A stretch of 64,000 nt of DNA from Elusimicrobiales bacterium (GTDB lineage: Bacteria > Elusimicrobiota > Elusimicrobia > Elusimicrobiales > UBA9959): the NCBI GenBank assembly GCA_031082205.1, contig JAVHLJ010000006.1, positions 1,445-65,444 of the forward strand. The letters are read 5' to 3'. Below, in pieces: positions 15,176 to 58,065 of this stretch. The notes under the pieces are model-generated. The model made no database searches, was not told the origin of the DNA, and saw only the letters and a program-made list of their open reading frames with translations. The translations under genes and the position numbers were made by a program. Numbering within the stretch: the first letter of the stretch is position 1; every line of letters begins with the position of its first letter.

Positions 15176-15248
15176 TTGTCCTCTCCTGGTCCGGCGGCGG
15201 GGGGAAACGGCGGGAGGCTCCGCGCGCGGCGGGGCCTCCCGCGGGCGG

Positions 15249-16013
15249 TCAGCGCTTCGAGAGGAAGTTGGCCAGCAGGAACTCGCGGTTCATGCGGGCG
15301 ATATTGGCGACCTTGACTTCCTTGGGGCAGACGGCCTCGCACTCGTACTCGTTGGTGCAGTTGCCGAAGCCTTCGGCGTCCATGGCTTCCACCATGGCCA
15401 GCGCGCGCTTCGCCTTCTCCGGCTTGCCCTGCGGCAGCAGCGCCAGCTGCGAGATCTTGGCGCCGGTGAACAGCATGGCCGCGCCGTTGGGGCAGGCGGC
15501 CACGCAGGCGCCGCAGCCTATGCAGGCGGCCGCGTCCATGGCCTCCTCGGCGTCGTCCTTGTCCACGGGTATCGAGTTGGCGTCGGGCGCGGCTCCGGTA
15601 TTGACGGAGACGTAGCCGCCGGCGGCCATTATCCGCTCCAGCGACGACCGGTCCACGACCAGGTCCCTGAGCACCGGGAAGGACTTGACCCTCCAGGGCT
15701 CGACGGTGATGACGTCGCCGTCCCTGAACCGCCTCATGTGCAGCTGGCAGACGGTGGAATGCTCGTCGGGGCCGTGCACGTCGCCGTTGACGACCAGGCC
15801 GCAGCAGCCGCAGATCCCCTCGCGGCAGTCGCTGTCGAAGGCGATGGGGCTCTGTCCGCGCTTCACGAGGTCCTCGTTGAGCACGTCGAGCATCTCCAGG
15901 AACGACATGTCGGGGTCCACGCCCTCCACCTTGTAGGACTCCATGCGGCCTTTTTCGCCGGGCCCGGCCTGGCGCCAGGCGCGCACCGTCACTCCGAATT
16001 TCTTGTCGCTCAT
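15249..16013 (-). CDS. sdhB: Succinate dehydrogenase/fumarate reductase iron-sulfur subunit
   Basis: Three Cys clusters: [34 protein letters not shown]. Confidence 0.9.
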
Positions 16014-16025
16014 GATCGGTCTCCG

Positions 16026-17939
<1,914 letters not shown>

Positions 17940-17940
17940 G

Positions 17941-18630
17941 TTATCTGGCCTCCGTCGCGGCGACCTGGTAATGGTGCTCGACCTTCTTATGGTCGAGCTC
18001 GAGCAGGAAATAGACCGAGATCATGGCGAAGCCCGTCATGGCCAGGGCGAACAGCAGCCCGCCGAACTTTATGAAGGGCGTGTATTTGGGGTGGCTGAGG
18101 CCGAGCGTCTGGAAGGAGCTCTGCATGCCGTGGCTCAGGTGCAGGACCAGCGCCAGCGCGCCGGCCACGTAGAAGGACACGAAGACCGGGTCGCGGAAGG
18201 CGTCGGTCACCATCCGGTAGAAGCCGACGGAATGATCGCCGAAGCGGAAGTCTATTATGTGGTAGACCAGGAAGGCCAGCATGACCGCCGCCGTGTAGAG
18301 CATGGTGGCCGAGCCCACCGTGCGGCCGCCCTGCCATTTGCGCTCCTCGTAGCCCGAGGGGGCGTTGCGCCAGTCCTCCCAGCGCACCCAGGCCGCCGTC
18401 GCGATGTGCAGCAGGAAGAGCCCGGCCAGGCCCAGCTCGGCGTAGAGGATGAGCGGGTTGGCCAGCAGCAGCGCCACGTAGCCGTCATAGGCCGCCTCTC
18501 CCTTGAGCAGCAGCAGGTTGCCCGCCAGGTGCACCAGGATGAAGGCTCCCAGCGCCAGGCCCGTGACGGCCATGACGAACTTCCTGCCTATAGAGGTGAA
18601 GATCACGCGTCTCACGAATCCAATGTCCAT
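17941..18630 (-). CDS. sdhC: Succinate dehydrogenase cytochrome b558-type membrane subunit
   Basis: 229 aa, about 5 TM with conserved His residues. First gene of an sdhCAB arrangement. Confidence 0.75.
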
Positions 18631-22309: not shown

Positions 22310-22852
22310 ATGGGAGGAACCATGAACAAGACCATATTGGCGGCGGCGCTGATCGCCTTCTGCGCGGGAATGTCCGCGGCCGAAGACAAGGCCCCGGCGG
22401 CGGGCGCCGCCCAGGAAAAAGCCCGGGCCGGCGAAAAGAAGGACTGGAAATCCTGGTACGACAACCTCTACAAGGGGCTCCGCTCCAAGGTGCAGGGCCG
22501 GTTCGAGTCCAAGACCCGCGTCAGCGCGGTCGCCGCGGTGCGGGGCAGCAAGACCGGCCGCGACGCCTCCGAGCTCTACTGGAAGGGCGGCGTTTCTGAA
22601 CAGGCCCGCAAGAAGGCCGAGGCCGAGCGCAAGGCGCTGGGCGACGCGGTGGAACTGGTCGTCAACGGCGACGCCGCCGGCGGCCGCGCGGCCCTTGAAA
22701 AGTTCATGAAGGAGAACCCGGACAGCGCGTACCTGCCCGAAGCCCGCGAGGCCCTGGAGATGCTCCCCGCCGGCGAGGCCGCCCCGGCCCAGCCGCCAGC
22801 CGCTCCCGCCGTTCCGGCCAAGACCGCTGAGGAGACCCCCGCCGGAAAGTAA
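22310..22852 (+). CDS. Hypothetical secreted protein
   Basis: Signal peptide NKTILAAALIAFCAGMSAAED. The start may be ATG 22322. 11 nt downstream of the NHL gene. Confidence 0.45.
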   Translation: MGGTMNKTILAAALIAFCAGMSAAEDKAPAAGAAQEKARAGEKKDWKSWYDNLYKGLRSKVQGRFESKTRVSAVAAVRGSKTGRDASELYWKGGVSEQARKKAEAERKALGDAVELVVNGDAAGGRAALEKFMKENPDSAYLPEAREALEMLPAGEAAPAQPPAAPAVPAKTAEETPAGK

Positions 22853-22865
22853 AGCCCCGGATGAT

Positions 22866-22898
22866 AAAAGAGGCGGCCCGAGGGCCGCCTCTTTTTTT
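22866..22898. terminator. Bidirectional intrinsic terminator
   Basis: AAAAGAGGCGGCC-cgag-GGCCGCCTCTTTTTTT. Confidence 0.85.
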
Positions 22899-22911
22899 GC
22901 CTATCTGGCGC

Positions 22912-23688
22912 CTATTGCAGGGGGGTGCCGGGGAGTTTTTGCGTGCTGCCGGGTTCGGGGTACACTACCGGGGAATGCTCTATCTCTTCGGGCGCCTGCG
23001 GGACGGGCGTGCCGGTCTCTTCCTCCGGCGCCGGTCCCGCGTCCTCCGCGGGGGCGGGAGGGTTCTTCAGGCTGGCGTAAACGTCGGTGGCCGTCTTCCA
23101 GAGCAGGTTCCTGTGCAGGGCGCTTTCCCTGGCGCCGGGGCTGGCGAAAGGGTAGAGGGGGAATATAAGCGCGTGGAAAACGGTCCTGTGGGTAGCCAAC
23201 TCCTCGGCCAGCGTGAACTTGTCCCTGTCCGAAGTGACCGTCAGCCTGTAATTCGCCCGCAGCGACCGCGGGAAGATCATTATCCAGGGGGTTTCCACCA
23301 GGAAAGAGCCGAAAAGGTCGCGGTAGGTCCACCGGCCGTAGCTGGTGAGGTCCAGGTAAAGGGTCCCTTTGCCCCTCGCGCGGTCGTAGAGGCCGGCCTC
23401 GGCCATCACTTTCTCCGCCTTCCTCCGGAACTCGAAGAACTCCTCCCTGCCGACGGGGACGGGCTTGGGAGGGGGAGTCCCTTCCACCGTCCCCTGGCCT
23501 ATGAGCTCCGCCGGGTTGAAATACGGGTAGTTGGTCCAGGTGAACTTGATGGCGGAGAAAGGGACTATCTCCCTGTCGGCCAGCATGTCGCGCAGGTGGT
23601 TGCGGTCGACGCGCACGTCGCCGGACTGGAACGAGGCGCAGCCGGAGAGCCCCAGCGCGGCCATGAGCAAAATCGTGTTCGGTTTCAT
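22912..23688 (-). CDS. Hypothetical lipoprotein
   Basis: MKPNTILLMAALGLSGCASF contains a lipobox (LSGC). I prefer ATG 23688 to the TTG at 23700. Confidence 0.55.
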   Translation of the reverse strand: MKPNTILLMAALGLSGCASFQSGDVRVDRNHLRDMLADREIVPFSAIKFTWTNYPYFNPAELIGQGTVEGTPPPKPVPVGREEFFEFRRKAEKVMAEAGLYDRARGKGTLYLDLTSYGRWTYRDLFGSFLVETPWIMIFPRSLRANYRLTVTSDRDKFTLAEELATHRTVFHALIFPLYPFASPGARESALHRNLLWKTATDVYASLKNPPAPAEDAGPAPEEETGTPVPQAPEEIEHSPVVYPEPGSTQKLPGTPLQ

Positions 23689-23831
23689 CGGCCCATACAA
23701 ATTATCACATTAAGGGCCCAAAATCCAATCGGAGCGGCCGCGGCCGCATTAATCCGCGTCAATGACACGGCACGGAACAGAGTTATATAATGTCCACGCC
23801 GCTTGAAAGCCGCTCCTGAGGGGGATTTTCC

Positions 23832-25070
23832 ATGTCGATGAGTTTCCGCCAGACCGACCTTACCGTGAATTCGGGTGACAGCAATTTTTCCGTGCGCATA
23901 CGCAACGCGCGCGTGGAGGACGCCAGGCGCATACAGGTGCTCTACGCCGAGGTCTACGGCCCCAATTACTCCGTTTCACTGGTCTCCGACAAAGCCAAGA
24001 TGCTCCACGCGATAACCAGCGACGACTATGTCTGGCTGGTCGGGGAGCACAACGGCAGGATAATAGCCAGCCAGATAGTGCAGATAGACCCCGCCAACCG
24101 CCTGGCCAAGGCGCTGGGCGCCGTGGTCTCCCGCGAATACCGGCGCCACAACCTGATCTATTCCATGATGGAGATCATCATGGAAAGCGTGACGAAGAAG
24201 CACAAGCTGGTGGACGCGGTGTACGCCACCACCCGGACCGTTACCGCGGCGCCCCAGAAGATACTCAACAACATGGGCTTCTCCGCGCTGGGGATATTCC
24301 CCAACGCGCACAAGGTGTACGAGCACGAGACCCACTGCCTGACCGCCTACTACGTGATCCCCGCCTGGGGCAGGCGCCGCAGGCCCGTCAGGATACTCAA
24401 GCAGATAGAGCCGTTCTACAGGCTGGCGCAGCGCGAGCTTCTGGCCAAGCTGCCCGGCAAGGAGCTCGAGCTCGGCCGGCCGAAGATCATGCCGGAGGGC
24501 TACATCGACGAGAATCCCCAGCCGGGGCGCCATAACGAGAACCTGATACAGTTCGAGACCATACAGGCGCCGAGTTTCGTCTCCGCCCGATTCAGGAAAA
24601 TGGGGACCAGCGGGGTCTTCTCCAACTCGTACGTGCCTTTCCACAAGCCCAACCTGATGCTGGTCTCCCACGACCAGAAGACCGAGATCTACATGCAGTA
24701 CAACCCGCAGGACCACTACTCCGTGATACTGGGGGGCAACACCGTGGTGACGGATTTCGCCCTGCTCCTCAACAGCGTGGCCGAGGTGATACGCGGCATG
24801 AACGTGAGCTACCTCGAATGCCTGGTCGACGCCTACACCCCCGAACTCCAGCGCCAGGCCATGCACGCCGGCTTCCTGCCCAGCGCCTATTTCCCCTCCA
24901 TGCGCCAGGTCGGCCGCAAGAGGTGGGATTATATCGCCTTCTCCCGCTCCTTCGAGATACTGGACTTCCGCAAGGTCAGCCTCATCCGGACCTACCGTTC
25001 CTACCTCAAGGAGTACATAAAGCTCTGGAACGAAATGTACGTGGAGACGGCCCTGAGGAGCCGGCATTGA
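23832..25070 (+). CDS. GNAT-family N-acetyltransferase, apparently two tandem GNAT-like halves
   Basis: 412 aa. The N-terminal VRIRNARVEDARRIQVLYAEVYG...ALGAVVSREYRRHNL is a GNAT-like core. The C-terminal half again looks GNAT-like (YLECLVDAYTPELQRQAMHAGFLPSAYFP). Confidence 0.5.
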   Translation: MSMSFRQTDLTVNSGDSNFSVRIRNARVEDARRIQVLYAEVYGPNYSVSLVSDKAKMLHAITSDDYVWLVGEHNGRIIASQIVQIDPANRLAKALGAVVSREYRRHNLIYSMMEIIMESVTKKHKLVDAVYATTRTVTAAPQKILNNMGFSALGIFPNAHKVYEHETHCLTAYYVIPAWGRRRRPVRILKQIEPFYRLAQRELLAKLPGKELELGRPKIMPEGYIDENPQPGRHNENLIQFETIQAPSFVSARFRKMGTSGVFSNSYVPFHKPNLMLVSHDQKTEIYMQYNPQDHYSVILGGNTVVTDFALLLNSVAEVIRGMNVSYLECLVDAYTPELQRQAMHAGFLPSAYFPSMRQVGRKRWDYIAFSRSFEILDFRKVSLIRTYRSYLKEYIKLWNEMYVETALRSRH

Positions 25071-26227
25071 TGGCGCGCGCCATCTCCACGCCGATTTCCT
25101 CGCCGCTCGGAGGGCGGAGCGCGATGGACCGCCTGATGGAGGCGCCCGCCTATGACCGCTCCGCGCGCTCGGGAGCCCTTTTCCTGGAGGCCATGCGCGA
25201 GGCCGCCCGCGTCCATTGCCGCCGCAATCCCCGGTTCAGGGGGCTGTGGAAGCTCGCCGGCTTCTCTCCCTCCGACCTGCGCGCCGAGCCCGACCTGGCG
25301 CGCATGCCCCACGTGTTCGTGGCGGCGCTCAAGGAGAGGGACTTCGTCTCCATCCCCCGCCGGGAGATAGTCCTGGAGCTGACCTCCAGCGGCACCTCCG
25401 GCCAGCGCAGCCGCACCGTCCTGGACCAGGGCTCGCTGCTGCGCGTGCGGCGGATGGTATGGCGGATCTTCGGCGCCCTCGGCATGGCCGGGGACGGCGC
25501 GGTCAACGATTACCTCTGCTTCACCTACGATCCCCGCGTGGCGAAGGACGTCGGTACGGCCTTCAGCGACGAGAGCCTCACCGGCCTCACCCCGAGGGGG
25601 GAGGTCTTCTACGCGCTGCGCTGGGACGCGGCGAAGAAATCTTTTTATTTCGACATGGCCGGGGCCCTGGCCGCGCTGGAGCGCTTCGAAAGCTCCGGCC
25701 GCCCGGCCAGGCTGATAGGCTTCCCGGCGCACGCCATGGCCGTCTGCGACGAGTTCCGCGCGCGGCGCGGCCGCGCCGTGCGGCTGCATCCCGGCAGCTG
25801 GGTCATAACCGGCGGCGGCTGGAAGGACAAGCAGGACCGCGCGGTGGACAAGGGCGAGATGCGCGCCCGCCTGGCGGCCTCGCTCGGCCTGGGCCCGGAG
25901 CGCGTGCGCGACCTCTTCGGCATGGTAGAGCACGGCGTGCCCTACGTGGACTGCCCGCTCGGCAACTTCCACGTGCCGGCCTACAGCCGGGTCATCGCCC
26001 GCCACCCGGCCACGCTGGAGCCGCTGCCCTACGGAGAGACCGGCCTGCTGCAGTTCATAACCCCGTACCTGTCCAGCTACCCCTCGATCTCGCTGCTCTC
26101 CAGCGACAAGGGCCGGCTGGAGGAGCGCTGCTCCTGCGGGCTCGGCGGCCCCGTCATGCATATCGCCGGCCGGGCCGGGGTGAAGAAAATGAAGGGGTGC
26201 GCCATCTCGGCGTCCACGATGCTATGA
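25070..26227 (+). CDS. LuxE-like acyl-protein synthetase / adenylate-forming enzyme
   Basis: I place the start at ATG 25070, overlapping the GNAT stop (TGATG). LELTSSGTSGQRSR is an AMP-forming P-loop-like motif. Overall layout matches the LuxE family (PF04443-type) as I recall it. Confidence 0.6.
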   Translation: MARAISTPISSPLGGRSAMDRLMEAPAYDRSARSGALFLEAMREAARVHCRRNPRFRGLWKLAGFSPSDLRAEPDLARMPHVFVAALKERDFVSIPRREIVLELTSSGTSGQRSRTVLDQGSLLRVRRMVWRIFGALGMAGDGAVNDYLCFTYDPRVAKDVGTAFSDESLTGLTPRGEVFYALRWDAAKKSFYFDMAGALAALERFESSGRPARLIGFPAHAMAVCDEFRARRGRAVRLHPGSWVITGGGWKDKQDRAVDKGEMRARLAASLGLGPERVRDLFGMVEHGVPYVDCPLGNFHVPAYSRVIARHPATLEPLPYGETGLLQFITPYLSSYPSISLLSSDKGRLEERCSCGLGGPVMHIAGRAGVKKMKGCAISASTML

Positions 26228-28872
26228 AAAGACCAGACGCTTATATTTTCGGGAGGGAAACGGCCAGGACCTCGCCCTGGACCCCGGCCGAGGTGGAGAA
26301 GGTCTGCCTGCGCGCCCGCGCCGCGGCCGACAGGCTGCGCGCGGCGGGGCCGGACTATGTCCTGGACACGCTGGCCGAGGTCGGCCGCTTCTGTTCCGAC
26401 GAGAGGAGCCCGTGGTACCGCGAGGCCTTCCGGCAGGTCAGGGAACAGTCGGGCTTCTCGCGCGAGACCATAGCGGCCTCGATGAAGGTGCTGCCCGCGA
26501 TCTTCGACCGGGGGGAAATGGAGAAAAGGCTGCGCCTCGAGCTTTTCCTGCCGGGCGCCCTGGACGCCTGCGTCGCCCGCGAAGGCTACGACGGCCTGGT
26601 CACGGCCGTGCCGCGCGGCGTGGTCCTGCACGTCGGGGCGGGCAACGTCTTCCTCGGCATAATAGACTCGCTTCTCATGGGAATGCTGACCCGCAACGCC
26701 AACGTGGTCAAGACGGCCAGCGGCGGCGCGGCTTCCATGGTCCATTTCGCGCGGGCCCTTAAGAAATGCGACCGCAGGGGCCTGCTGGCCTCCTCGGTGG
26801 CCGTTCTCAGCTGGCCCGGCGGGGCCGCCGGGGTGGAGGAGGCCGCCGCGCGCAGCGTGGACGCCGTGATGGTCTGGGGCGGAGAGGAAGCGGTTGCTGC
26901 CTACCGGCGCGCCGCGCCGTCGCAGGTCCACGTGGCCGGCTTCGGCCCCAAGGTCAGCATGGCCGTCGTCTTCCCGTCGGCCCTGGGCTCCGCCGGCGCG
27001 GACGCCGTGGCGGAGAGGCTGGCCCGCGACGCCAGCGTCTGGGAGCAGAACGCCTGCTCCTCGCCGCACACCGCTTTCATCGTGGACCCGGACCTGCGCC
27101 GCAGGGACCCTCTGGCCCGCGGTTTCTGCTCCGCCCTTTCCGCCGCTTTCGAGAAGCTGCGCCGCGAGCTGCCGCCCGGCGAGCTCTCCTTCGACGAGCA
27201 GGTCGAGATCACCCGCGCCCGCGAGCTGGCGAAGGCGGACATGGCCGTCGGCGAGGCCTCGCTCCGCAGCTCTTTCCCTTCCACCGCCTGGACCGTCATA
27301 TCGGAGAAGGACCCGGTGTTCCGCGTCTCCGCTCTCAACCGCACGCTCTACGTGAAGTGCGTGGCCTCGTTCAGGGAGGTAGAGAAGGCCGCGGCCGCCT
27401 ACCGCGGGCACATACAGACCGCCGGCGTGGCCGGCACCATGGAGGAGCGCGAGGAGGCCGCCCGCCGGCTGGCGCCGCTCGGCATAGCGCGCGTCACCAG
27501 GCTGGGCGCCATGCTGGAAAGCCCGGCCGGCTCGCCTCACGACGGGACCTTTCCCATGCGCGAGCTGGTGCGCTTCACCGGCGTCGAGGGAGGCCCCGCG
27601 CCGGCCGACGTCCTTTCCGGGCTCGTGGAGCACGCCAGGGAGAAAAGCCCTTTCTACCGCCGCCACCTGCGCGGCGTGAAGAAGATATTTTCGGAGGAGG
27701 AGTTCCGGTCGGTGCCCCTGCTGACCAAGGAGCACATCCTGGCGAACACGCCGCCGGACAGCTCCGACATGTTCACCGGACCCGTAGGTTCCGGGGTCTA
27801 CTTCGCCAGCGGCGGCTCCACCGGCAGCCCCAAGTACATCTTCTACGACTGGAAGGAGTTCGACCGTCTCTGCCGGATGGTCGGCCGCGCCTACATGAGC
27901 GCGGGACTGGGGGCGGAGGACAGGGCCGCCAACCTTTTCGTCGCGGGCAATCTCTGGTCCAGCTGGGTGGGAGTAGAGCGCGCCCTCTCCACCACCCCGG
28001 CCGTCAGCGTGCCGGTCGGCAGCGCGCTGCCCATGGAGAGCATAGTGAAATACCTCTCCGAGTTCAGGGTGACGGCGATCATAGGCCTCCCTTCTTTCCT
28101 GCTCAAGCTGGCGCAGTACTGCGAGGAGGACCCGGCGCGCCGGAAGTTCCCGCTGCGCTACATCTTCTACGGCGGCGAGTACGTCGGCCCGGAGATGAGG
28201 GCCTACTTCGGCAGGGTCTTCCCCGGGGTCCGGCTGCGCTCCGGCGGCTACGCCACTGTCGACGCCGGCCTGATAGGCTACCACTGCGCGCATTGCGAGG
28301 GAGGGGTCCATCACCTCATGCGCTCCGAGCAGTACCTGGAGATACTGGACCCGGAGACCTGGAAGCCGGTATCCGGCGGCGGCGTGGGCGAGCTCGTCGT
28401 GACGGTCCTCAACAAGCGGCACATGCCGATAATCCGCTTCAGGACCGGCGACCTCGGCCGCTGGCTGGAGGGGCCCTGCGCCTGCGGCGGCTCCGACCCC
28501 CGCTTCGAGATACTCGGCCGCTGCGACGACCGCATACACGCCGGCGGGGCTCATATCTTCGTCAGCGACATCTCCCGGGCGATAGCCTCGGTGAAGGGCC
28601 TCAGCCTGCATTTCCAGGTGGAGATCTCCGCGGGCGCGTCAGGCGACCGGCTGAAGCTGCGCGTGGAAACGCGCGGCGCGGCCCCGGCCCCGAAAGGGAC
28701 CGCGTCCGCGCTGCTGGCGGCGCTGAGGAAGAACTGCCGGGACATGGCGGACTCGCTGGACATGAAGTGGCTGGCCCCGCCCGAGCTGGAGCTGCTGCCG
28801 CCGGGCGCCATAGAGCGCGTGGCGCGCACCGGCAAGATACGGCGCGTGATAGACCGCCGCGTGAAGGCCTGA
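26224..28872 (+). CDS. Fusion: LuxC-like acyl-CoA reductase (aldehyde-forming) + PaaK/F390-synthetase-like adenylate-forming ligase
   Basis: ATGA start/stop overlap with the LuxE-like gene. The N-terminal half has VLHVGAGNVFLGIIDSLLMGMLTRNANVVKTASG and WEQNACSSPH (LuxC-type catalytic Cys region). The C-terminal half has SPFYRRHL...VPLLTKEHI and FASGGSTGSPKYIFY (PaaK-like). Confidence 0.6.
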   Translation: MKRPDAYIFGRETARTSPWTPAEVEKVCLRARAAADRLRAAGPDYVLDTLAEVGRFCSDERSPWYREAFRQVREQSGFSRETIAASMKVLPAIFDRGEMEKRLRLELFLPGALDACVAREGYDGLVTAVPRGVVLHVGAGNVFLGIIDSLLMGMLTRNANVVKTASGGAASMVHFARALKKCDRRGLLASSVAVLSWPGGAAGVEEAAARSVDAVMVWGGEEAVAAYRRAAPSQVHVAGFGPKVSMAVVFPSALGSAGADAVAERLARDASVWEQNACSSPHTAFIVDPDLRRRDPLARGFCSALSAAFEKLRRELPPGELSFDEQVEITRARELAKADMAVGEASLRSSFPSTAWTVISEKDPVFRVSALNRTLYVKCVASFREVEKAAAAYRGHIQTAGVAGTMEEREEAARRLAPLGIARVTRLGAMLESPAGSPHDGTFPMRELVRFTGVEGGPAPADVLSGLVEHAREKSPFYRRHLRGVKKIFSEEEFRSVPLLTKEHILANTPPDSSDMFTGPVGSGVYFASGGSTGSPKYIFYDWKEFDRLCRMVGRAYMSAGLGAEDRAANLFVAGNLWSSWVGVERALSTTPAVSVPVGSALPMESIVKYLSEFRVTAIIGLPSFLLKLAQYCEEDPARRKFPLRYIFYGGEYVGPEMRAYFGRVFPGVRLRSGGYATVDAGLIGYHCAHCEGGVHHLMRSEQYLEILDPETWKPVSGGGVGELVVTVLNKRHMPIIRFRTGDLGRWLEGPCACGGSDPRFEILGRCDDRIHAGGAHIFVSDISRAIASVKGLSLHFQVEISAGASGDRLKLRVETRGAAPAPKGTASALLAALRKNCRDMADSLDMKWLAPPELELLPPGAIERVARTGKIRRVIDRRVKA

Positions 28873-28941: not shown

Positions 28942-30147
28942 ATGAGCGTTTACACGTCGAAGCAGCTGGAAAAATACGCCGATACTCTTATCTGGGGCCT
29001 GACCACCTCCCGCCCCAAGCCTTTCAAAAAATACGACAACATCCTGGTCAGGTGCGACCTTGAAGCTCGGCCGCTCGGCGAGACAGTCTACCGCAAACTG
29101 GTCGGTCGCGGTTTCAACGTGGTCTTCAATTTTCTCGCCACTCCCGCCATAGAGCGCTCCTTCCTCGAGCGTTCAGACCCCAGGCAGCGCGCCTTCCTCG
29201 GGTCCTGGGACGAGGAACTTTATGACAACCTTAACGGGTATGTCTACATAAACGCGCCGAGCTCGCTCACGCATCTGAAGGATATAGATCCAAAGCGGCA
29301 ATCCGAGGCCGCCATAGCGCGAAAGCCCCTGTTCAGGATCCGGGATAAACGCGAGGAAAAAGGGCTGTTTTCCTGGGTTCTCTGCACATATCCCACTGAA
29401 GAGCTCGCCAGCAGGGCGAAACTTACGCTGAAGGAATACGCCGCCCAGATCGCCAAGGCCTGCTATATCAACGAGCCCGACCCGGCGAAGAAATGGAACG
29501 CCGTCTTCAAAGAAGTAACGGCCATAAAGAAATGGCTCAACGCGATGCCCATTGACACCATACGCACGGAATCCGCCTCGATGGACTTTACGGTGAAACT
29601 GGGCGAGCGCAGGAAGTTCCTGGGCGTGAGGGGTCATAATATCCCCAGCTTCGAGATCTTCACCTCGCCCGACTGGCGCGGCACGCGAGGCGTCTATTGC
29701 GCCAACCTGCCGACCTTCCGCGGCGGCAATTACATCGAGAAGATACGCCTGGAATTCAAGGACGGGCGCGCCGTGAGGATCTCGGCCGCGAAAGGCGCTG
29801 ATTACGTCAGGAAGATCATGGCCACGGACAAGGGGGCCTCGCAGATAGGGGAATATTCGCTGACCGACCGCCGCTTCTCCAGGATAGACAAGTTCATGGC
29901 CGACATACTCTTCGACGAGAACCACGGCGGGAAGTACGGCAATTGCCACGTCGCCATCGGCAGCGCCTATACCGACACCTACGCCGGGGACCCCTCGAAG
30001 CTGACCAAAGAGGCCAAGGCGAAGCTTGGCTACAACGACTCGGCCGTGCACTGGGATATGATCAATACAGAGGACAAGAAGGTCACCGCGACGCTAAGGA
30101 ACGGTAAAAAAGCGACCATCTACGAGGGCGGGCAGTTCAAGTACTGA
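28942..30147 (+). CDS. M29 family aminopeptidase (AmpS/PepS/aminopeptidase T type)
   Basis: MSVYTSKQLEKYADTLIWGL and GNCHVAIGSAY are typical of M29. Start at ATG 28942 with SD GGAGG. Confidence 0.75.
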   Translation: MSVYTSKQLEKYADTLIWGLTTSRPKPFKKYDNILVRCDLEARPLGETVYRKLVGRGFNVVFNFLATPAIERSFLERSDPRQRAFLGSWDEELYDNLNGYVYINAPSSLTHLKDIDPKRQSEAAIARKPLFRIRDKREEKGLFSWVLCTYPTEELASRAKLTLKEYAAQIAKACYINEPDPAKKWNAVFKEVTAIKKWLNAMPIDTIRTESASMDFTVKLGERRKFLGVRGHNIPSFEIFTSPDWRGTRGVYCANLPTFRGGNYIEKIRLEFKDGRAVRISAAKGADYVRKIMATDKGASQIGEYSLTDRRFSRIDKFMADILFDENHGGKYGNCHVAIGSAYTDTYAGDPSKLTKEAKAKLGYNDSAVHWDMINTEDKKVTATLRNGKKATIYEGGQFKY

Positions 30148-30219: not shown

Positions 30220-31398
30220 TCAGGGATTCCGGGTCCAGGAGCTTTTACTTAATTTTTTTCCGTCCAGGAGAACCTCCCGTCCGGCGCCGCCGTTGAACGA
30301 CACTACCAGATCGACGTGCTGTGAAGAATGGTTGGCGGAACCGGACCGGAGCAGCCTGCTGAAACGGCGTCTCCCTCGCGCGTTCTTCAGGTCCGCGCCG
30401 AAAGCTTCCGGAAAACACGTGCCAAGGGCTATATGCATGGTTCCCCCGATCTTTTCGCAGAAAAGGGGATGCTTTAGCGGCAGGGATAGCCCCGTGTTTA
30501 TTCCGAAAGCCACTTCTCCCACCCGTTTCGCCCCGCTGTCGGTGCGTATTATCTCGCTTAACTTCCGCCCCCCGTTTTTTGATCTGAACGCGACGACTTC
30601 TCCGTCCGTGAATTTGAGGTACGTTCCGGATATGATCTCGCCCTGGACCAGGATCGGCATGTCCAGGAAGATTTCTCCGTTCACGCTGTTGGCCAATGGG
30701 CTGGTGAACACTTCTCCCTGGGGTATATTGATGCCTTGCAGGTCGTTCAGAATGCGCTGGCCCTCTATGATCATTTTCAGTTCCAAGATCCGTCCGCCCG
30801 GTCTGGGACTGGTGAGTATGGACAGCTCCCTTGTTTTTGAGAGCGCGGCCGATATTTTTTCCGCCGTCTTTAGTGTTCTCGAGAATGGTTCGGTGGCCCC
30901 GCGGATGACGGCTTCCGCGTATTTCCTGAAAGGGAGCCCCTCTATGCGCGCGAAAGCCTCGGTCGGATACATCGTCACGACCCACTTTTTCTCCCTGCGT
31001 ATTTCGCGCATCCCGGCGTCCAGCTCGAGGATCCGTTTCATGACAGGCCCTTCGGCGCATTTTGCCGCCTCCGGGTCTTCCATCCCCAGTATTTCTATTA
31101 CCTTGTCCGCTGCTTCGTTGCGCAGCCGCTGCCAGGCCGGGGCCGCGCGCAGGTTGCGGAGATCTCCCAGCCGGGATACGGCCGCGCTCCAGATCCGCCC
31201 TCTTTCATTGTCGGGGGGGGCCATCGCGATGTCGGCCATGCCGCCCGACCTGAGTATCTTTTCCTGAAGCAGTTCTATCAGCGGCCAGGCGGCGTGTTCG
31301 CCTCTTATCATCACCGTTTCGCCGGGTCTTACGCCTCCCAGGGACCTTGTAAGGAGGATGTCCGCCCATTTGTCGAGCAGGTTGCGATGTTTATCCAT
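30220..31398 (-). CDS. M29 family aminopeptidase (second paralog)
   Basis: MDKHRNLLDKWADILLTRSL and GGTMHIALGTCF. ATG 31398 chosen, 32 nt downstream of the histidine kinase stop. Confidence 0.7.
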   Translation of the reverse strand: MDKHRNLLDKWADILLTRSLGGVRPGETVMIRGEHAAWPLIELLQEKILRSGGMADIAMAPPDNERGRIWSAAVSRLGDLRNLRAAPAWQRLRNEAADKVIEILGMEDPEAAKCAEGPVMKRILELDAGMREIRREKKWVVTMYPTEAFARIEGLPFRKYAEAVIRGATEPFSRTLKTAEKISAALSKTRELSILTSPRPGGRILELKMIIEGQRILNDLQGINIPQGEVFTSPLANSVNGEIFLDMPILVQGEIISGTYLKFTDGEVVAFRSKNGGRKLSEIIRTDSGAKRVGEVAFGINTGLSLPLKHPLFCEKIGGTMHIALGTCFPEAFGADLKNARGRRRFSRLLRSGSANHSSQHVDLVVSFNGGAGREVLLDGKKLSKSSWTRNP

Positions 31399-31430
31399 AA
31401 AATTCCCGCCTCGTCGGATTCGGTCCGGTC

Positions 31431-33599
31431 TTACTTCCACGGCGGCTCCTTGCCGGTCACGGTCAGCCATGGAAGATGGGCAAAGGCCTCGGGCGCATGT
31501 CCTGTCGCCAGCCGGATGTTCTTGTAGCCCGCTGCACGCAGCCGCAGGGCGACTTCCTCCCCTTTCTCTCCGTCGCCAAGTTCCGAATCTATGTATATGC
31601 GGCTGTCCTTGCTTATCTCCAGCTCCGCGGAAAAGAAGTCGGCAGCGGAGGGGAATATGCGTACCGGTTCTCCCCTGGTTTCGGCCGAGGTCTTCCAGGT
31701 CATCCGCGTAAGCGCGTCATCGTCTATTAGCACGGTCAGCGCTTTGACCGCCGGGGTTCCCGGTCTTATGCGTATAGGGACCAGCCCGGCCAGTCCTTTA
31801 GGTATGATACGGATCCCCATGTTAAGGCAGGACGCGATAATGTCCGGTTCCTCGTACCGGCTGGTCGCCAGGACCGCCCTCTTTTGCAGGGAGAACTCCG
31901 CCGCCAGGCTCAGCCCGGTTTCGAAAGTGTCGGCCAGTTCGTAATCGAGAAGGAATAGGGCCGTATTGGCTGCGCCGGTGTTTTCGTTCATCCAGGCGCG
32001 TAAATCAGCGGAAGACGAGAGATGCACGGCCGTTATCCCGCCCCTGCCCGAACTCAGGGACTCCAGCCTGCCGCGCCATATCTGATGTATGCTGCTGTCG
32101 TCGTCCAGGATCACCAGAGTCCCGCCTTTTTCGATGCTTATCTCAGGCATGAACCAGGCCGGCGCCTCCGCGCGGGGGAGTCGTATCTCGGCTTCCGTTC
32201 CCTTTCCAGTGGAAGAACTAAGCGAAAAGGTCCCGTTCCAGGACTCGGTTACTGTCTTGGCGTAATGGACCCCCAGCCCGGATCCGCCGGTTTTTCCGTG
32301 GGTCTCTCCCCTTTTGCCTATTTTGGCCAGGATACCGGGCGGTATGCCTTTGCCGTCGTCGCGGACCCTTATGACCGCTTCATCGCCTTCCCGGTCCAGG
32401 GAGACGGTCGCGTAACCTTCCCTATCCATGGCCTCGACGGAGTTGTTTAGAAGGTTGGAGAGGGCCCGCTTAAGTTCGGAGGGACGAACCTTGGCGAAGA
32501 GGCCATAGGAGTCCCTCCCGAAGCAGGAGTCGATGCGGACGCCTATTTTGCCGCGGAACTGAAGACGCTTCTCGCTCACTATGGATTCTATGAGCGATGA
32601 GATAAGGCAGGCGGAAAGCGGCGCCTCCTGTTCTTTCGGCGCCGGGGCGCCGCCGTCTTCGCGGAACGGCAGGCTCCTGTTCCGCTCTATCAGGTCGTTC
32701 GCGATATCCCTGATCCTGTCTATGGCGCTCCGCAGCAGGCGGCGCTTCTCCTCCGGAAGGGAGGAGATGTCTTTGTTCAGGGAATCCATGGCCGCGAGGG
32801 GCGAGCGGATATCGTGCGCTACCTGGGCGGCCTGTTTGCCGAGCGCCGAGAAACTGGCCTCGCGCTGATGGGCTTCCTGGGAGGCGATAAGTTTTTTCAG
32901 CGAGTTCTTGAGGACGTCCAGCAGCACTTTCAGTTCCGGGCTGCTTTTCCGCGGCGCCAGGCGCGCGTCGAAGTCCTCAAGCGGTATCGGCCATTCTGTG
33001 CCTATTTTTTTAAGATTCGACACGAATTCGTCCAGCGGTCTCAGGATCGCCCTGGTGTTGTAGAGAAGCACGGCCGTCCAGGCCGGGATGAAAAGCAGGA
33101 AAAAGAAGAATACGCTGTTGAGCTGCCGGAGGAAATTCCCGTACGCCGTTTTCCAGTAATAGGCGATTTCCACGGCGCCCCAGTATTTCCCCGTATCGTC
33201 CCTCACGTCGGAACGGAGCACGGCGACCTTTTCCGCTCCGAGCACCAGGGACTCCTGTATCGCCCGCGTGGCGACCGCGACCCGGAAGGACTCTATTTCA
33301 AATACGTCCTTTTCCGTGCTCAGATGGACGGGCAGGCCCCGCTCATCGAGTATCGCCAGATAGGCCATTTCGTCCTTCTTGAAGAGGCCGGTGGAAAGCC
33401 TGGACAACTCGAAATAATTGGATATCTGCAGGCCGCTCAGCGCGATGTTGGCGACCTGTTCGCCGAAAGAGGCTCTGTCGGACAGGAACTCTTTCTTGTG
33501 GCTCTTTTCAAAACGGTACAAGTGGGATAGAAAAATCCCCAGGAGCATGGAGAAGCTCATCGCTATCACGAGGAGCACTAGTTTGAGGTTGGTTCTCAT
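31431..33599 (-). CDS. Hybrid sensor histidine kinase with two C-terminal receiver domains
   Basis: I place the start at ATG 33599 (MRTNLKLVLLVIAMSF). Two TM segments flank a ~170-aa extracytoplasmic region. H-box AHDIRSPLAAM, N box LLNNSVEAM, DDGKGIP, GGSGLGV. Then REC1 (LVILDDD...FLLDYEL...IPKG) and REC2 (VLIDDD...IYIDSEL). Confidence 0.8.
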   Translation of the reverse strand: MRTNLKLVLLVIAMSFSMLLGIFLSHLYRFEKSHKKEFLSDRASFGEQVANIALSGLQISNYFELSRLSTGLFKKDEMAYLAILDERGLPVHLSTEKDVFEIESFRVAVATRAIQESLVLGAEKVAVLRSDVRDDTGKYWGAVEIAYYWKTAYGNFLRQLNSVFFFFLLFIPAWTAVLLYNTRAILRPLDEFVSNLKKIGTEWPIPLEDFDARLAPRKSSPELKVLLDVLKNSLKKLIASQEAHQREASFSALGKQAAQVAHDIRSPLAAMDSLNKDISSLPEEKRRLLRSAIDRIRDIANDLIERNRSLPFREDGGAPAPKEQEAPLSACLISSLIESIVSEKRLQFRGKIGVRIDSCFGRDSYGLFAKVRPSELKRALSNLLNNSVEAMDREGYATVSLDREGDEAVIRVRDDGKGIPPGILAKIGKRGETHGKTGGSGLGVHYAKTVTESWNGTFSLSSSTGKGTEAEIRLPRAEAPAWFMPEISIEKGGTLVILDDDSSIHQIWRGRLESLSSGRGGITAVHLSSSADLRAWMNENTGAANTALFLLDYELADTFETGLSLAAEFSLQKRAVLATSRYEEPDIIASCLNMGIRIIPKGLAGLVPIRIRPGTPAVKALTVLIDDDALTRMTWKTSAETRGEPVRIFPSAADFFSAELEISKDSRIYIDSELGDGEKGEEVALRLRAAGYKNIRLATGHAPEAFAHLPWLTVTGKEPPWK

Positions 33600-33616: not shown

Positions 33617-35173
33617 TTACCTGCCGCAAAAGACGGCTCTCGAGGGTCTCGAGTCCTTGCCGCCGCCGGCGATGCTCACATGGTACATTTCGATGTCGTT
33701 GAAAGATGTGTTGGGGTACTGCACGCCTTCCACCCATTTCTGGACGGTGCCGTCGAAGATGTCCCCGGAGTAAAGCGGTATTATGTACGCTTTTTCTATC
33801 AGCATATCGTTCACCATCCTGAAAAGGGAGGTCCGCCTGGACGGGTTCATTTCGGTCCTGCATTTGTCCAGCAGCGTGTCCAGTTCCTTGTCCGCCTGAC
33901 TGAACATTTTTTTGCCGGAGTCCGATCGGTATGCCGACAAGAGAAAATAGCTGTCCATGAAAGGCCAGTCGCTGCCCAGCAGGGTCATATGCCAGAGTCC
34001 GGATTTGAAATTGGCGGCGATGCCGGAATTATCGGTCTTTTCCGGTATTATCCGCAGCCCTGACTTGGCCGCGTAAGCCGCCAGCCCGTCCAGCAGCGGC
34101 CCCGTGTAGGGGATGTTGCCCGTGAACTGGAGCTTTATCGGCGGAACATCCTTGAATTCTTTATACCCGGCCTTGCGGATAAGACGGAGCGCCTCGGCAG
34201 GGTCGTAGGCCGTCCCTTTGAACCCCGGGTCATAACCTACACGGCCTTTCGGGATATACGACGCCGATCTGCCGAGCAACGGGAACTCCGAACTGAGCCC
34301 GTCGAGCACCCGGTCGTAGTCTATGGCTCTCGCTAAGGCCTGACGGACGTATTTGTTGTCCAGCGGCGGATTGGAGGCGTTCAGGGTGAATATGAAGGAG
34401 ATTATCCCGTTGGTGAAAATACGCTTAAATCCGGAACGGTCGGCGCCCTTGGGGAGATTATATGGGGCGATGTCGTCCAGTTCGCCTTTGACGAAGTCCT
34501 CGAACAGGCGCTCCTTGTCGGGATATATGAAATAGACGATGCCGGGGAGTTTTGGGGGGGACATGAAATAGTCCGGGTTGGCTTTCAGGATCAGGCTGTT
34601 GTCGTTCCGGCATTCCAGTGTGAAAGGCCCGGTCCCTGTCGGAGCCTCTTCCGGCGACCCGCCGTACCCTTTTTTTATGATCGACGCCGCCGAACCGGCG
34701 AGGATGTGCAGAAGATAGGGGGTGGACTGCCTCGTCTCCACTATTACGGTGTCCCCCTCCGCCTTTATCCCGGAAATGTCGTTGAACTGCCTTACCTGGT
34801 CCGACCCCCTGATCATGCGCTGCAGCGAGAATACCACATCGTCGGGCGTAAGTTCGGACCCGTCCACGAAGCGGACCCCTTTCCTTATACGGAAGGCGTA
34901 TTTCCGGCCGTTGTCCGAGACCGACCAGCTCTCCGCCAGCATCGGTTTCCATCTGTAGTCCTTGTCGTAAGCGACCAGCTGGTCGAACAATTGACGTATC
35001 ACCTGCACCTCGTTGCCGGAAGTGCCCTTCACGGGGTCCAGGCTGATAGGCATGGCGTAGAGTATCCGCCGGTAATAATCGTTACGGGGGACCGGCTTTT
35101 CATCTCCGATCGCCGGGCCGGCGAAGGCCGTGACGATGGCGAGAACCGAGATCATGACAGGGCCGCTAAACAT
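33617..35173 (-). CDS. Extracytoplasmic solute-binding protein, family 5 (peptide/nickel Opp/Dpp type), orphan
   Basis: Signal peptide MFSGPVMISVLAIVTAFAGPAIG with SD GGGAG upstream of ATG 35173 (alternative ATG at 35203). Typical SBP_bac_5 layout (LDPVKGTSGNEVQVIRQLFDQLV...). No permease or ATPase genes are adjacent. Overlaps the radical SAM stop by 8 nt. Confidence 0.75.
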   Translation of the reverse strand: MFSGPVMISVLAIVTAFAGPAIGDEKPVPRNDYYRRILYAMPISLDPVKGTSGNEVQVIRQLFDQLVAYDKDYRWKPMLAESWSVSDNGRKYAFRIRKGVRFVDGSELTPDDVVFSLQRMIRGSDQVRQFNDISGIKAEGDTVIVETRQSTPYLLHILAGSAASIIKKGYGGSPEEAPTGTGPFTLECRNDNSLILKANPDYFMSPPKLPGIVYFIYPDKERLFEDFVKGELDDIAPYNLPKGADRSGFKRIFTNGIISFIFTLNASNPPLDNKYVRQALARAIDYDRVLDGLSSEFPLLGRSASYIPKGRVGYDPGFKGTAYDPAEALRLIRKAGYKEFKDVPPIKLQFTGNIPYTGPLLDGLAAYAAKSGLRIIPEKTDNSGIAANFKSGLWHMTLLGSDWPFMDSYFLLSAYRSDSGKKMFSQADKELDTLLDKCRTEMNPSRRTSLFRMVNDMLIEKAYIIPLYSGDIFDGTVQKWVEGVQYPNTSFNDIEMYHVSIAGGGKDSRPSRAVFCGR

Positions 35174-37082
35174 TGGATATCGCTCCCATGTCCGCAAGGT
35201 CATTGAGGTGCCGGATGAGGTCTTCTTTTCCTCCCAGGCCTTCCTCGCGAGGCATATCGCCGGGCCTGGCTGGCCGGCGCTTCGCTGCCTTCAGCGCCTT
35301 GAACAGGCGCGGTTCCAGCTCGAAAGACTCTATGTCCTCCCCCGTGTCGACGAGGCAGAGGAGCGTCCTCCCCGGCCGGGGCCTTTCGGGCAGCGGCCCG
35401 GGCCCGAGATAATCGGAAAGCCGTATTCTCGATTCCAGCAGAAAGGCTTTTCCCGAGAGGCGGTACGGTCTGCCGACGTCGAAAGGGCGCGATTTGCGGG
35501 GCGCGGCCGTCCCCCTGGCCTTTACCATTTTCAGAAGAAGCTTCTCGTATCGGAATATTTCCCGGAAGACGAGGAACTCGGATGGTTTTAGTTTTTTGCG
35601 AATGCAGGCCGTCAGTCCGGGCTTCCACGCCCGCCCGCTAAGGACAGGAAAGACGGCGGCCGGCGGTAATCCGGGGACTGAAAATAGGTAGTTGAAAGAG
35701 CGGTAATGTCCGACCGCCAGTTCCTGCAGCCTCCAGGTCGCGTGCGGCAGCAGCAGGCTTCTTCCCGGCCTGTCCTTAAGGGCCCAGAACTGCCTGAATA
35801 TTTCCGGGTGCCCGTGTATCATGCCGCGGGTCTTCCCGTCGCTGGCTATCAGGGGGGGGGTATAGTAGGAATTCTTCGCGCTGACCTTCCGGGTCCGCTC
35901 CGCTATTTCCGTTCCCGGAAGGGGGAACAGGTGGAGGATGTTCACCCGCTCCGCGCCCATGACCCGCAGCCTGAACGCGAGCCGCACCGAGGCGTTACGG
36001 TCCGAGTCGGACTCCTGGGGGAACCCGAGGATGAAGGAAAAAACGGGGTTGAGGCCGCTGGCGATGAGGTCAGAGGCCAGCGGGAGGACTTTCTTGACGT
36101 CTACGTTCTTCCCGATCGAGTGCTGTATCCTCCGGGATCCGCTCTCGATCCCCACGAAAAGACCGATGCAGCCGGCCTTTTTCATGCCATCCATCAGCCC
36201 CCTGTCCCCAAAAAGGTGTTCCAGCCGCCCGCTGGCGCCCCAGGAGAGCGCTTTGCCCTCGAGTTCCGAGCAAAGCTTTACCGCGAACTCCCTGTCGCAG
36301 AGCAGGTTGTCGTGCACGAGGGAGAACCTTGCCCCGGGGAATTTGGCGGCCAGGGACTGCATTCGCCCGGCTATTACGGCCGGCGGGAGCACGCGGTATT
36401 TCCGTTCCCACATCAGGGACGTGGAGCAGTACGAGCATTTATACGGACAGCCGGTCCCCGCCAGCACCAGCATGAGGCACGCGGGGTTAATCCGGCGGTA
36501 CCCGCCGAAATCGACAAGGCCGTAGTCCGGTTCTATGGTCGTCACGTCAGGCCCCGAGGACTGCGTCGGCGTAGATCTCGCGGCGCCGCTTCCCGGCTCG
36601 CGGTATGTCAGTGACGGGACCTCACGGAAGTCCAGGCCGTTCAGCGCGGCGCAGAGCCTGGTCAACGGTGTTATCCCGTCGTTCCTGATCACGAAGTCGA
36701 CGAAAGGGAAATCCCGTATTATATTTTCCGCTACGAAGGTCGCATGAGGCCCGCCCATCACTATACGCGAGCCGTATCTGCGTTTTATGTACTCGGCGAG
36801 CCTGACCGACAGGTGGAAGTTGTCGCAGAATCCGCCCAGCCCGACCAGGTCGAAAGGGCCCCTTTTCCTGAAAACAGAATCGACGCACCTTTCCTGCGCT
36901 TTCGCGGGGGGGAGCCGTCGCATTTTTTTATCGCAGTATTCGAAGGGGATGTCCAGGATGGTCGTTTCGGTGCCCGGCGAGGCCTCTTTCAGCCCGGAAG
37001 CCAGGTATACCAGGTGCAGGGGATATTCCAGGTCGCGATTTGAAAGCATCGCGAGCATTGGATTTATCAGGAGTACTTTCAT
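35166..37082 (-). CDS. B12-binding (class B) radical SAM enzyme with ~150-aa C-terminal extension
   Basis: MKVLLINP... is a B12-binding-domain N-terminus. CX3CX2C cluster motif GCPYKCSYCS. 638 aa. I do not recognise the C-terminal region after about aa 480. Confidence 0.8.
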   Translation of the reverse strand: MKVLLINPMLAMLSNRDLEYPLHLVYLASGLKEASPGTETTILDIPFEYCDKKMRRLPPAKAQERCVDSVFRKRGPFDLVGLGGFCDNFHLSVRLAEYIKRRYGSRIVMGGPHATFVAENIIRDFPFVDFVIRNDGITPLTRLCAALNGLDFREVPSLTYREPGSGAARSTPTQSSGPDVTTIEPDYGLVDFGGYRRINPACLMLVLAGTGCPYKCSYCSTSLMWERKYRVLPPAVIAGRMQSLAAKFPGARFSLVHDNLLCDREFAVKLCSELEGKALSWGASGRLEHLFGDRGLMDGMKKAGCIGLFVGIESGSRRIQHSIGKNVDVKKVLPLASDLIASGLNPVFSFILGFPQESDSDRNASVRLAFRLRVMGAERVNILHLFPLPGTEIAERTRKVSAKNSYYTPPLIASDGKTRGMIHGHPEIFRQFWALKDRPGRSLLLPHATWRLQELAVGHYRSFNYLFSVPGLPPAAVFPVLSGRAWKPGLTACIRKKLKPSEFLVFREIFRYEKLLLKMVKARGTAAPRKSRPFDVGRPYRLSGKAFLLESRIRLSDYLGPGPLPERPRPGRTLLCLVDTGEDIESFELEPRLFKALKAAKRRPARPGDMPREEGLGGKEDLIRHLNDLADMGAISNV

Positions 37083-43386: not shown

Positions 43387-43525
43387 TTAACGATATGTTA
43401 CAGGGGAGCCCATTGAAAGCGGCTCGGCTTGTATTATATTATAATTGCGTCGGCGCCATTCGCGCGCATTCCCGACAGCGAACCCCCAGCCCCAGCCGGG
43501 CTCCCGCGCAGCCAGGAGAGAACGA

Positions 43526-44650: not shown

Positions 44651-44664
44651 TAAGGAGACTTCCC

Positions 44665-58060: not shown

Positions 58061-58065
58061 CCCCG

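Follow-up and report, generated by a model that had tools for sequence, protein, structure and literature searches.

A tandem-GNAT, LuxE and LuxC::PaaK operon of Elusimicrobiales as a candidate minimal relative of the leupeptin-type pathway

What could LuxE- and LuxC-type enzymes be making in a stretch of DNA in which no luciferase gene was found? The question is raised by a three-gene operon (23832-28872, plus strand) in 64,000 nucleotides (nt) of the Elusimicrobiales bacterium assembly GCA_031082205.1 (contig JAVHLJ010000006.1, positions 1,445 to 65,444), the whole of which is called here the window and has a GC content of about 65%. The operon encodes a tandem-GNAT acyltransferase of 412 amino acids (aa) (g1, 23832-25070), a LuxE-type acyl-protein synthetase of 385 aa (g2, 25070-26227) and an 882-aa protein in which a LuxC-type reductase domain is fused to a complete PaaK-type ligase domain (g3, 26224-28872). 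On balance, we read the operon as a pared-down relative, three genes long, of the leup-type pathway, which is independent of non-ribosomal peptide synthetases (NRPS); its product is most likely a small aldehyde of an N-acylated amino acid or dipeptide. An earlier reading of this DNA, referred to below as the original prediction, had likewise envisaged a small molecule or peptide that is N-acylated or bears an aldehyde; from the domain set, the catalytic residues and the leup-like homologous cassettes, this is the best-supported reading.

The three genes are closely packed. The stop and start codons of g1 and g2 overlap in the sequence TGATG (25068-25072) and those of g2 and g3 in a 4-nt ATGA (26224-26227), overlaps that bear out at mapped coordinates the translational coupling claimed earlier. 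Codon-position GC backs all three reading frames. A candidate sigma-70-like promoter (23762-23791, +) precedes the g1 start codon by 40 nt and consists of ATGACA and TATAAT hexamers separated by an 18-nt spacer. The hexamers agree with the consensus at 11 of 12 positions, and this is a consensus match only: three such sites were found in 7.6 kb against 1.0 expected by chance. A riboswitch 5′ of g1 was ruled out for lack of space, because only about 40 nt separate the -10 hexamer from the start codon.

The second gene belongs to the LuxE family by Pfam (PF04443, E = 1.7e-32), as the original prediction had it, and its product aligns with LuxE of P. phosphoreum (7xc6_E, E = 1.1e-16). The cryo-electron microscopy structure of the LuxC-LuxE complex (7XC6) names as functional the residues Lys238, Arg355 and the acylated Cys364 of LuxE, together with the active-site Cys of LuxC (PMC9157457). 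All three LuxE residues have counterparts in g2. Lys252, within a GGGWK loop (25811-25825), aligns on Lys238; Arg368 aligns on Arg355; and Cys377, in a C-terminal KGCAIS (26192-26209), aligns on Cys364 in the TRxxKGCxLS motif. The hallmark motifs were also kept in eight out of eight partner LuxE proteins checked. The score of g2 against the NCBIfam LuxE equivalog NF052244 was 82.8 bits and did not reach the cutoff of 550.

In g3, the LuxC-type thioester reductase domain occupies residues 1 to about 460 (26224-27603, +), with PF05893 matched at residues 46-450 (E = 2.4e-70). Cys278, in the NACSS motif (residues 276-280; codon at 27055-27057), aligns with the active-site Cys of P. phosphoreum LuxC (7xc6_A), and the polar residues surrounding the LuxC Cys are kept as Gln398, His439 and Asp440. 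Here again the equivalog model was not reached (NF052251, 100.5 bits against a cutoff of 750).

The remainder of g3 (residues 463-882; 27610-28872, +) forms a PaaK-type adenylate-forming ligase domain that includes the C-terminal subdomain. Pfam assigns residues 529-879 to AMP-binding and AMP-binding_C_2, NCBIfam PaaK models cover residues 463-879 (E = 4e-45 to 4e-36), and the domain aligns end to end with the PaaK structures 4r1l, 2y27 and 2y4o (E = 3e-36 to 3e-28). The P-loop SGGSTGSPK is found at residues 529-537 (27808-27834) and the A10 lysine is Lys871 in a C-terminal TGK (28834-28836). Scores against the PaaK equivalogs TIGR02155 and NF041878 (124 and 154 bits) fell short of the cutoffs of 646 and 700. 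Weak NCBIfam matches to DdaG and BagE/FevW, and PDB matches to AjiA1 and a PaaK-like ligase, were also obtained; they fit the fact that PaaK-like ligases include CoA-independent amide and ester formers. With PF05893, AMP-binding, the NACSS motif and the P-loop all located, the two-domain composition proposed for g3 stands, and the Pfam searches that the original prediction had suggested support its LuxC, LuxE and PaaK assignments alike. Across 26 fusions 35-76% identical to g3, Cys278, Gln398, His439 and Asp440 of the reductase domain and the P-loop and TGK lysine of the ligase domain are invariant; the catalytic Cys and the TGK lysine are invariant also in a more distant paralogous set. The catalytic hallmarks of the operon are thus complete: the Lys loop and C-terminal Cys of LuxE, the Cys of LuxC, and the P-loop and A10 Lys of PaaK.

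The product of g1 divides into an N-terminal half (about residues 20-200) and a C-terminal half (about residues 235-412), the latter a divergent GNAT fold ending in a long helix. Pfam detected the N-terminal half only (Acetyltransf_4, residues 23-167, E = 1.5e-6). An AlphaFold2 model of the whole protein, built with 47 homologues, reached a predicted local distance difference test (pLDDT) of 90 and a predicted template modelling score (pTM) of 0.90. When used in a fold search, the N-terminal half of this model matched GNAT structures at E = 2e-10, with ArsN and phosphinothricin acetyltransferases at the top, followed by SpeG. The C-terminal half was modelled separately (pLDDT 88), and GNAT structures accounted for all 50 matches listed in its fold search (E = 3e-7, template modelling score about 0.5). 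The internal-duplication test, a profile-profile alignment of the two halves, was marginal (E = 0.005), and it is therefore the fold search on which we base the assignment of the C-terminal half. The models and fold searches agree with the two GNAT-like halves originally described. The acyl-CoA pyrophosphate-binding motif (Q/R-x-x-G-x-G/A) is partly kept in the N-terminal half, as R104-R-H-N-L-I (family consensus R-K-H-x-L-A), and the C-terminal half has no such motif; judging from these residues, probably just one half would be catalytic. The resemblance of the N-terminal half to amino-acid N-acetyltransferases, of which the ArsN and phosphinothricin types act on free amino acids, may offer a clue to the substrate. 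In NCBIfam, g1 scores best against the beta-lysine acetyltransferase AblB, with 30 bits (E = 2.6e-7) against a cutoff of 205.

We then looked at how far the cassette is spread. g3 is identical to a protein from an Elusimicrobiales metagenome-assembled genome (MAG) and its full-length relatives, 34-86% identical to it, number more than 120, the named ones being nearly all from Elusimicrobia MAGs. In a scan of one genome per GTDB species, the LuxC::PaaK fusion was found in at least 122 genomes; the 80 of these that were listed are almost all Elusimicrobiota, with one Armatimonadetes MAG. With an E-value under 1e-30, HMMER matched 532 of 1.84 billion cluster representatives. Among the best 150, about 120 are 770-950 aa long and span both domains, down to 25-30% identity, which sets the size of the fusion family at a minimum of about 120 clusters at 50% identity. 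By tblastn of the window proteins, g1, g2 and g3 are collinear in about 77 of 87 loci, and most of the gaps are contig ends. Together with the strong domain E-values, this collinearity shows that the domain and cassette calls are not due to chance.

In Elusimicrobia, the synteny runs from fumarate reductase through an NHL/TPR protein and a lipoprotein gene to the cassette, then to an M29 aminopeptidase gene at variable distance; in distant carriers, the flanks are wholly different and the three genes are still together. All-against-all clustering of open reading frames (ORFs) across the loci revealed no additional universal partner gene. In a few loci, genes are inserted at the g1/g2 or g2/g3 junction (DUF362, periplasmic solute-binding-like, a membrane/secreted pair, AAA-type ATPase-like); they are mutually unrelated and were rejected as parts of the cassette. 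The same was concluded for small ORFs 3′ of the fusion in three loci (L001, L004 and L005), which encode unrelated small membrane-like proteins.

A paralogous fusion family, at about 30% identity, is present in Riflebacteria, Oligoflexales, Deltaproteobacteria, Pseudomonadota and other Elusimicrobia MAGs, and at each of the three loci looked up, the LuxE and fusion genes share a 4-nt overlap. In the Oligoflexales locus the gene order is MFS, g1 homologue (full-length, hhalign E = 6.5e-36), stand-alone PaaK-like ligase, LuxE, fusion. A tblastn search of plasmids retrieved full-length fusions in Streptomyces, Kitasatospora, Streptantibioticus cattleyicolor and Salmonella. On a plasmid of Streptomyces sp. 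NBC_01426, an operon whose genes are all coupled encodes a PaaK-family ligase, an MFS transporter, a GNAT that is a full-length g1 homologue (hhalign E = 4.5e-41), an acyl-protein synthase and an 'acyl-CoA reductase', which is an 845-aa protein with LuxC and AMP-binding domains. MFS_3 exporter genes adjoin the cassette in the Oligoflexales, Riflebacteria and Streptomyces loci and may, from their position, be a clue to export. A stand-alone PaaK-type ligase gene is present in the Streptomyces, Salmonella and Oligoflexales cassettes and in that of locus L090. RefSeq attaches the GO term 'bioluminescence' to the fusion of NBC_01426 (L093, 8734-11271), and other database names for the family are 'AMP-binding protein', 'aldehyde dehydrogenase family protein', 'long-chain-fatty-acyl-CoA reductase' and 'acyl-CoA reductase'; annotation of the fusion family varies from record to record and is probably misleading.

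The Salmonella IncF plasmid carries the order LuxE, fusion (802 aa), PaaK-family ligase. Its LuxE is 36% identical to g2 and its fusion 28% identical to g3 over 763 residues. This conjugative plasmid of Salmonella enterica (CP053580.1; L094, 836-4202 and 7155-13317) holds a leup-like cassette, possibly with a degraded GNAT, which is preceded a few kb upstream by genes for an HlyD protein and an ABC exporter with a peptidase domain. The proteins of the Salmonella cassette occur also in many Salmonella enterica subspecies, Cedecea and Erwinia.

It is these cassettes that link the window to leupeptin. A 2026 preprint lists the leup cluster of K. oxytoca as MFS, LuxE/PaaK-family acyltransferase, acyl-CoA reductase, PaaK-family ligase and GNAT (bioRxiv 10.64898/2026.08.25.747093). 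According to two further sources (PMC8283571, PMC11480411), Li et al. 2020 characterised leupABCD by genetics and by expression in a heterologous host; the cluster occupies a region of 5,831 bp, is NRPS-independent and is found in Klebsiella oxytoca/michiganensis, Photorhabdus and Xenorhabdus. Its products are given there as leupeptin (acetyl-Leu-Leu-argininal) and, after proteolysis, a Leu-Arg pyrazinone signal. The window has, of the leup-type features, a LuxE/PaaK-family gene, a LuxC-type reductase gene beside it and a GNAT gene. The Salmonella cassette, from the start of LuxE to the end of the ORFs that follow the ligase gene, measures about 5.76 kb in the order LuxE, reductase, PaaK; because this is close to the 5,831 bp of leupABCD, it suggests that LeupB may itself be a LuxC::PaaK fusion. 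The novelty that the original prediction saw in the LuxC-PaaK fusion, an architecture it did not recognise as characterised, does not hold up, since fusions paired with LuxE are widespread and the experimentally characterised leup cluster is described with the same family set. The original prediction had also considered that the cassette might prove to be a widespread, already characterised pathway. The type is indeed both known and widespread, while the three-gene version of Elusimicrobia is uncharacterised. Literature searches combining LuxC/LuxE with PaaK or GNAT, and with the Pfam accessions, returned no account of this cassette, and in the literature searched no family member beyond Gammaproteobacteria appears to have been studied.

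Several observations weigh against leup kinship. Identity to the enterobacterial cassette is low (28-36%), and the ORFs that follow the Salmonella PaaK-family ligase gene are only weakly g1-like. The leup cluster has a separate gene of the phenylacetate-CoA ligase family (KOX_RS06930 in K. oxytoca) and an MFS exporter, whereas the window operon has neither and so offers one ligase unit against two. The sole PaaK-type unit among the window ORFs scanned is the LuxC-fused one, with no stand-alone AMP-binding/PaaK gene, and the nearest MFS/TLC-like gene (37399-38646) lies 8.5 kb downstream, outside the operon. Finally, the core synteny in Elusimicrobiales (fumarate reductase, NHL/TPR protein, lipoprotein) looks more like that of a housekeeping locus than of a sporadic secondary-metabolite cluster.

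If the operon does follow leup-type logic, its steps could run as follows. g1 would N-acylate, probably acetylate, an amino acid. The ligase domain of g3 would adenylate a carboxylate and then either join it to the amino group of another amino acid, so that an N-acyl dipeptide results, or make an acyl-CoA donor for g1. g2 would adenylate the free C-terminal carboxylate and carry the acyl group as a thioester on the flexible C-terminal Cys377, and this arm would hand it to Cys278 of g3, where NAD(P)H would reduce it to the aldehyde. The residues needed for the g2 and g3 reactions are observed and the chemistry is ascribed to them by homology with LuxE/LuxC; we infer the order of the steps, the substrates, the use of CoA by the ligase and the product. 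Making leupeptin takes one acetylation, the formation of two amide bonds and the reduction of one carboxylate. For this the leup set has a single GNAT, two units of PaaK-type ligase and a LuxE/LuxC pair, and the window cassette has one GNAT, one ligase unit and one such pair, which makes an N-acyl dipeptide aldehyde the simplest prediction. If what the ligase makes is instead the acyl-CoA donor used by g1, an N-acyl amino aldehyde would be expected.

Other products have to be weighed. In a lipid pathway, g2 and the LuxC domain would act as a fatty-acid reductase making fatty aldehyde, and PaaK and GNAT would make an N-acyl lipid (e.g. a lipoamino acid) or modify an envelope lipid. The sole biochemically characterised LuxC/LuxE pair does reduce myristic acid (PMC9157457), and vertical conservation in a core synteny beside a lipoprotein gene fits an envelope or housekeeping role. 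However, neither the cassette nor its conserved neighbourhood has a LuxD, acyl carrier protein (ACP) or fatty-acid synthesis gene, and g2 and g3 score far under the equivalog cutoffs (83 against 550 bits for LuxE, 100 against 750 bits for LuxC). The phmmer alignment of g3 with the LuxC chain begins at g3 residue 123 and LuxC residue 133, so that the N-terminal part of LuxC with the mutated cleft residues 107-121 (PMC9157457) falls outside it. Add to this the amino-acid acetyltransferase character of the N-terminal half of g1 and the peptide aldehyde made by the homologous leup cluster, and a lipid product seems unlikely to us; the substrate of g2 and g3 is probably not a fatty acid. A glycan or envelope acyl substituent would account for two carboxylate activators on one substrate and for the core-genome location: LuxE/LuxC would reduce one carboxyl of a dicarboxylic or hydroxy acid, the ligase would activate the other, and GNAT would transfer the group to an amino sugar or envelope amine. 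LuxE/LuxC homologues and extra AMP-ligases are indeed encoded in O-antigen and flagellin glycosylation loci (PMC4772473, PMC7874193, PMC4875605), but the pathways cited (Vibrio cholerae O1 tetronate, flagellin glycosylation islands) are themselves only predicted. The genes conserved with the cassette include none for a glycosyltransferase, sugar-nucleotide enzyme, ACP or alcohol dehydrogenase, and the glycan genes of the window (AsnB-GT9, WbqC) are about 19 kb away; we see little chance for this scheme.

The genes that follow the operon bring in primary or catabolic metabolism, in which ATP- and NAD(P)H-dependent reduction of the carboxylate of an amino or aryl acid, e.g. of an N-acetyl amino acid to a semialdehyde in the manner of ArgB/ArgC, would be tied to peptide or lysine fermentation. 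Two convergent M29 (aminopeptidase T-type) genes, at 28942-30147 (+) and 30220-31470 (-), the first starting 70 bp past the g3 stop codon, are followed by a gene for a peptide-binding protein (SBP_bac_5, 33617-35203). By ORF clustering, M29 recurs 3′ of the cassette in about 30 loci, lysine 5,6-aminomutase genes lie just downstream in one locus, and the best NCBIfam match of g1 is AblB. Against this, M29 was found in Elusimicrobia only and at distances of 13 bp to about 4.5 kb, and was therefore taken as lineage synteny; because of this variable distance, and with only about 30 loci having it, M29 was rejected as a feature of the operon. The aminomutase neighbourhood is a single case, the AblB match stays at 30 bits against 205, and the extra PaaK ligase and the exporters of related cassettes would be left unexplained. 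This reading appears very improbable. The leup model accounts for the homologous five-gene operons with exporters better than any rival.

Within the leup model, a bolder and only tentative proposal, which we think may well be wrong, is that the three genes suffice by themselves as a minimal NRPS-independent synthase of peptide aldehydes and have been passed down vertically, as a core operon, across Elusimicrobiales. The compound made, be it an N-acyl dipeptide aldehyde, an N-acyl amino aldehyde or a derived pyrazinone, might serve as a housekeeping regulator or signal, for example by controlling the cell's own peptidases in peptide fermentation; the M29 aminopeptidases encoded next to the cassette might be its targets or its processing enzymes. 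The fusion might channel the ligase product straight to reduction. If the leup kinship is true, leupeptin-type logic, in which PaaK-like ligases, a GNAT and a LuxE/LuxC reductase replace an NRPS, would reach beyond a few pathogens among the Gammaproteobacteria into a large superfamily, for the most part unannotated, that includes a core operon of Elusimicrobiales, a poorly known order, and operons of cultured Streptomyces. The gene set would then provide a genome-mining signature for peptide-aldehyde protease inhibitors and pyrazinone signals that NRPS-centred searches may miss, and a compact three-gene chassis for peptide aldehydes.

Upstream of the operon, a lipoprotein gene with the lipobox LSGC (22912-23700, -) and a secreted-protein gene (22310-22852) match no Pfam family and are conserved only within Elusimicrobia; the former is divergent from the cassette in 60 loci. 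A plus-strand ORF of 309 aa (22861-23790) was rejected as a shadow of the lipoprotein gene, because identity among homologues (40-85% against 23-62%) and codon-position GC both favour the minus-strand frame. No luciferase or LuxD family was found among the roughly 40 window ORFs scanned with Pfam, which left a few ORFs outside the scan, nor among the conserved neighbours, and the lack of luxA, luxB and luxD reported earlier is confirmed within that scope. Gene context offers no pointer to a defence-system or phage origin, and both were set aside. About 12 Elusimicrobia loci, and also the unrelated Oligoflexales locus, have a gene for an HI0933-like flavoprotein no more than a few kb from the cassette (L033, 11425-12855; L089, 242-1474). 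In another Elusimicrobia locus (L091, 10503-14393; g3 56% identical), the cassette is followed by a 280-aa gene, a MutS_V-domain gene and the lysine 5,6-aminomutase-like genes, which match Lys-AminoMut_A and OAM_dimer/B12-binding; their presence, taken with the AblB match of g1, may be coincidence or a hint at an amino-acid substrate.

Further away in the window, a 978-aa protein (8-2944, +) joins GATase and Asn_synthase to a family-9 glycosyltransferase (heptosyltransferase) domain. This AsnB-GT9 fusion is unusual and, with the methyltransferase and WbqC-like genes that come next (2931-4444, +), apparently belongs to a surface-glycan locus. The genes for fumarate reductase and fumarase (13559-18630) are in keeping with an anaerobic fermenter. 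The window also encodes an RtcB RNA ligase with archease (11093-12951, -), a B12-binding radical SAM protein (35166-37082, -), an acetate-kinase-like protein with a phosphotransacetylase/butyrylase (43445-45594, +), and a 979-aa protein combining a response-regulator receiver with PPDK_N (phosphoenolpyruvate-utilising, ATP-binding; 54105-57047, -), which adjoins a two-component system (57377-59835).

How does the operon compare with known systems? With the LuxC-LuxE fatty acid reductase it shares, by residues, adenylation, self-thioesterification on a C-terminal Cys, transfer to a reductase Cys and NADPH reduction, and every mapped catalytic residue is kept in g2 and g3. It differs in that the scanned window ORFs include no luxA, luxB or luxD, in that the equivalog cutoffs are widely missed, and in that LuxC has its own C-terminal tail of roughly 30 residues where the LuxC domain of g3 carries the PaaK ligase. 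The g3 C-terminal domain resembles PaaK phenylacetate-CoA ligase along its whole length, with P-loop and A10 lysine kept, but it is fused to LuxC, scores 124-154 bits against cutoffs of 646-700 and has no paa catabolic genes nearby. NRPS with a terminal reductase and carboxylic acid reductases reach the same outcome, an aldehyde of a peptide or acid, by way of ATP-dependent carboxylate activation, a thioester and reduction with NAD(P)H. They use carrier-protein, condensation or SDR-type (short-chain dehydrogenase/reductase) reductase domains, of which the cassette has none; its thioester would sit on the LuxE Cys and its reduction would fall to the LuxC domain of aldehyde dehydrogenase fold. 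The surface-glycan sets (Vibrio cholerae O1 tetronate; flagellin islands of Aeromonas and Enterobacteriaceae) also place LuxE/LuxC with AMP-dependent ligases and acyltransferases outside bioluminescence. They carry ACP, FabG, alcohol dehydrogenase and glycosyltransferase genes, none of which is associated with the window cassette, and their ligase is CaiC-like or a fatty-acid CoA ligase in place of a fused PaaK-type domain.

It is with the leup cluster, compared by described families, that the operon has most of its parts in common: a LuxE/PaaK-family protein, a LuxC-type reductase, a PaaK-family ligase and a GNAT in a co-directional operon, and an enterobacterial cassette of the same gene order has homologues of g2 (36%) and of both domains of g3 (28%). 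The GNAT of the window is a 412-aa tandem protein only weakly similar to its enterobacterial counterpart, and the cassette is conserved throughout an order, unlike a strain-specific island. On the reading favoured here it is a minimal variant, without the second ligase or the exporter, of a known and characterised pathway type with a large family, set apart by its tandem GNAT, this reduced gene set and its vertical conservation in Elusimicrobiales.

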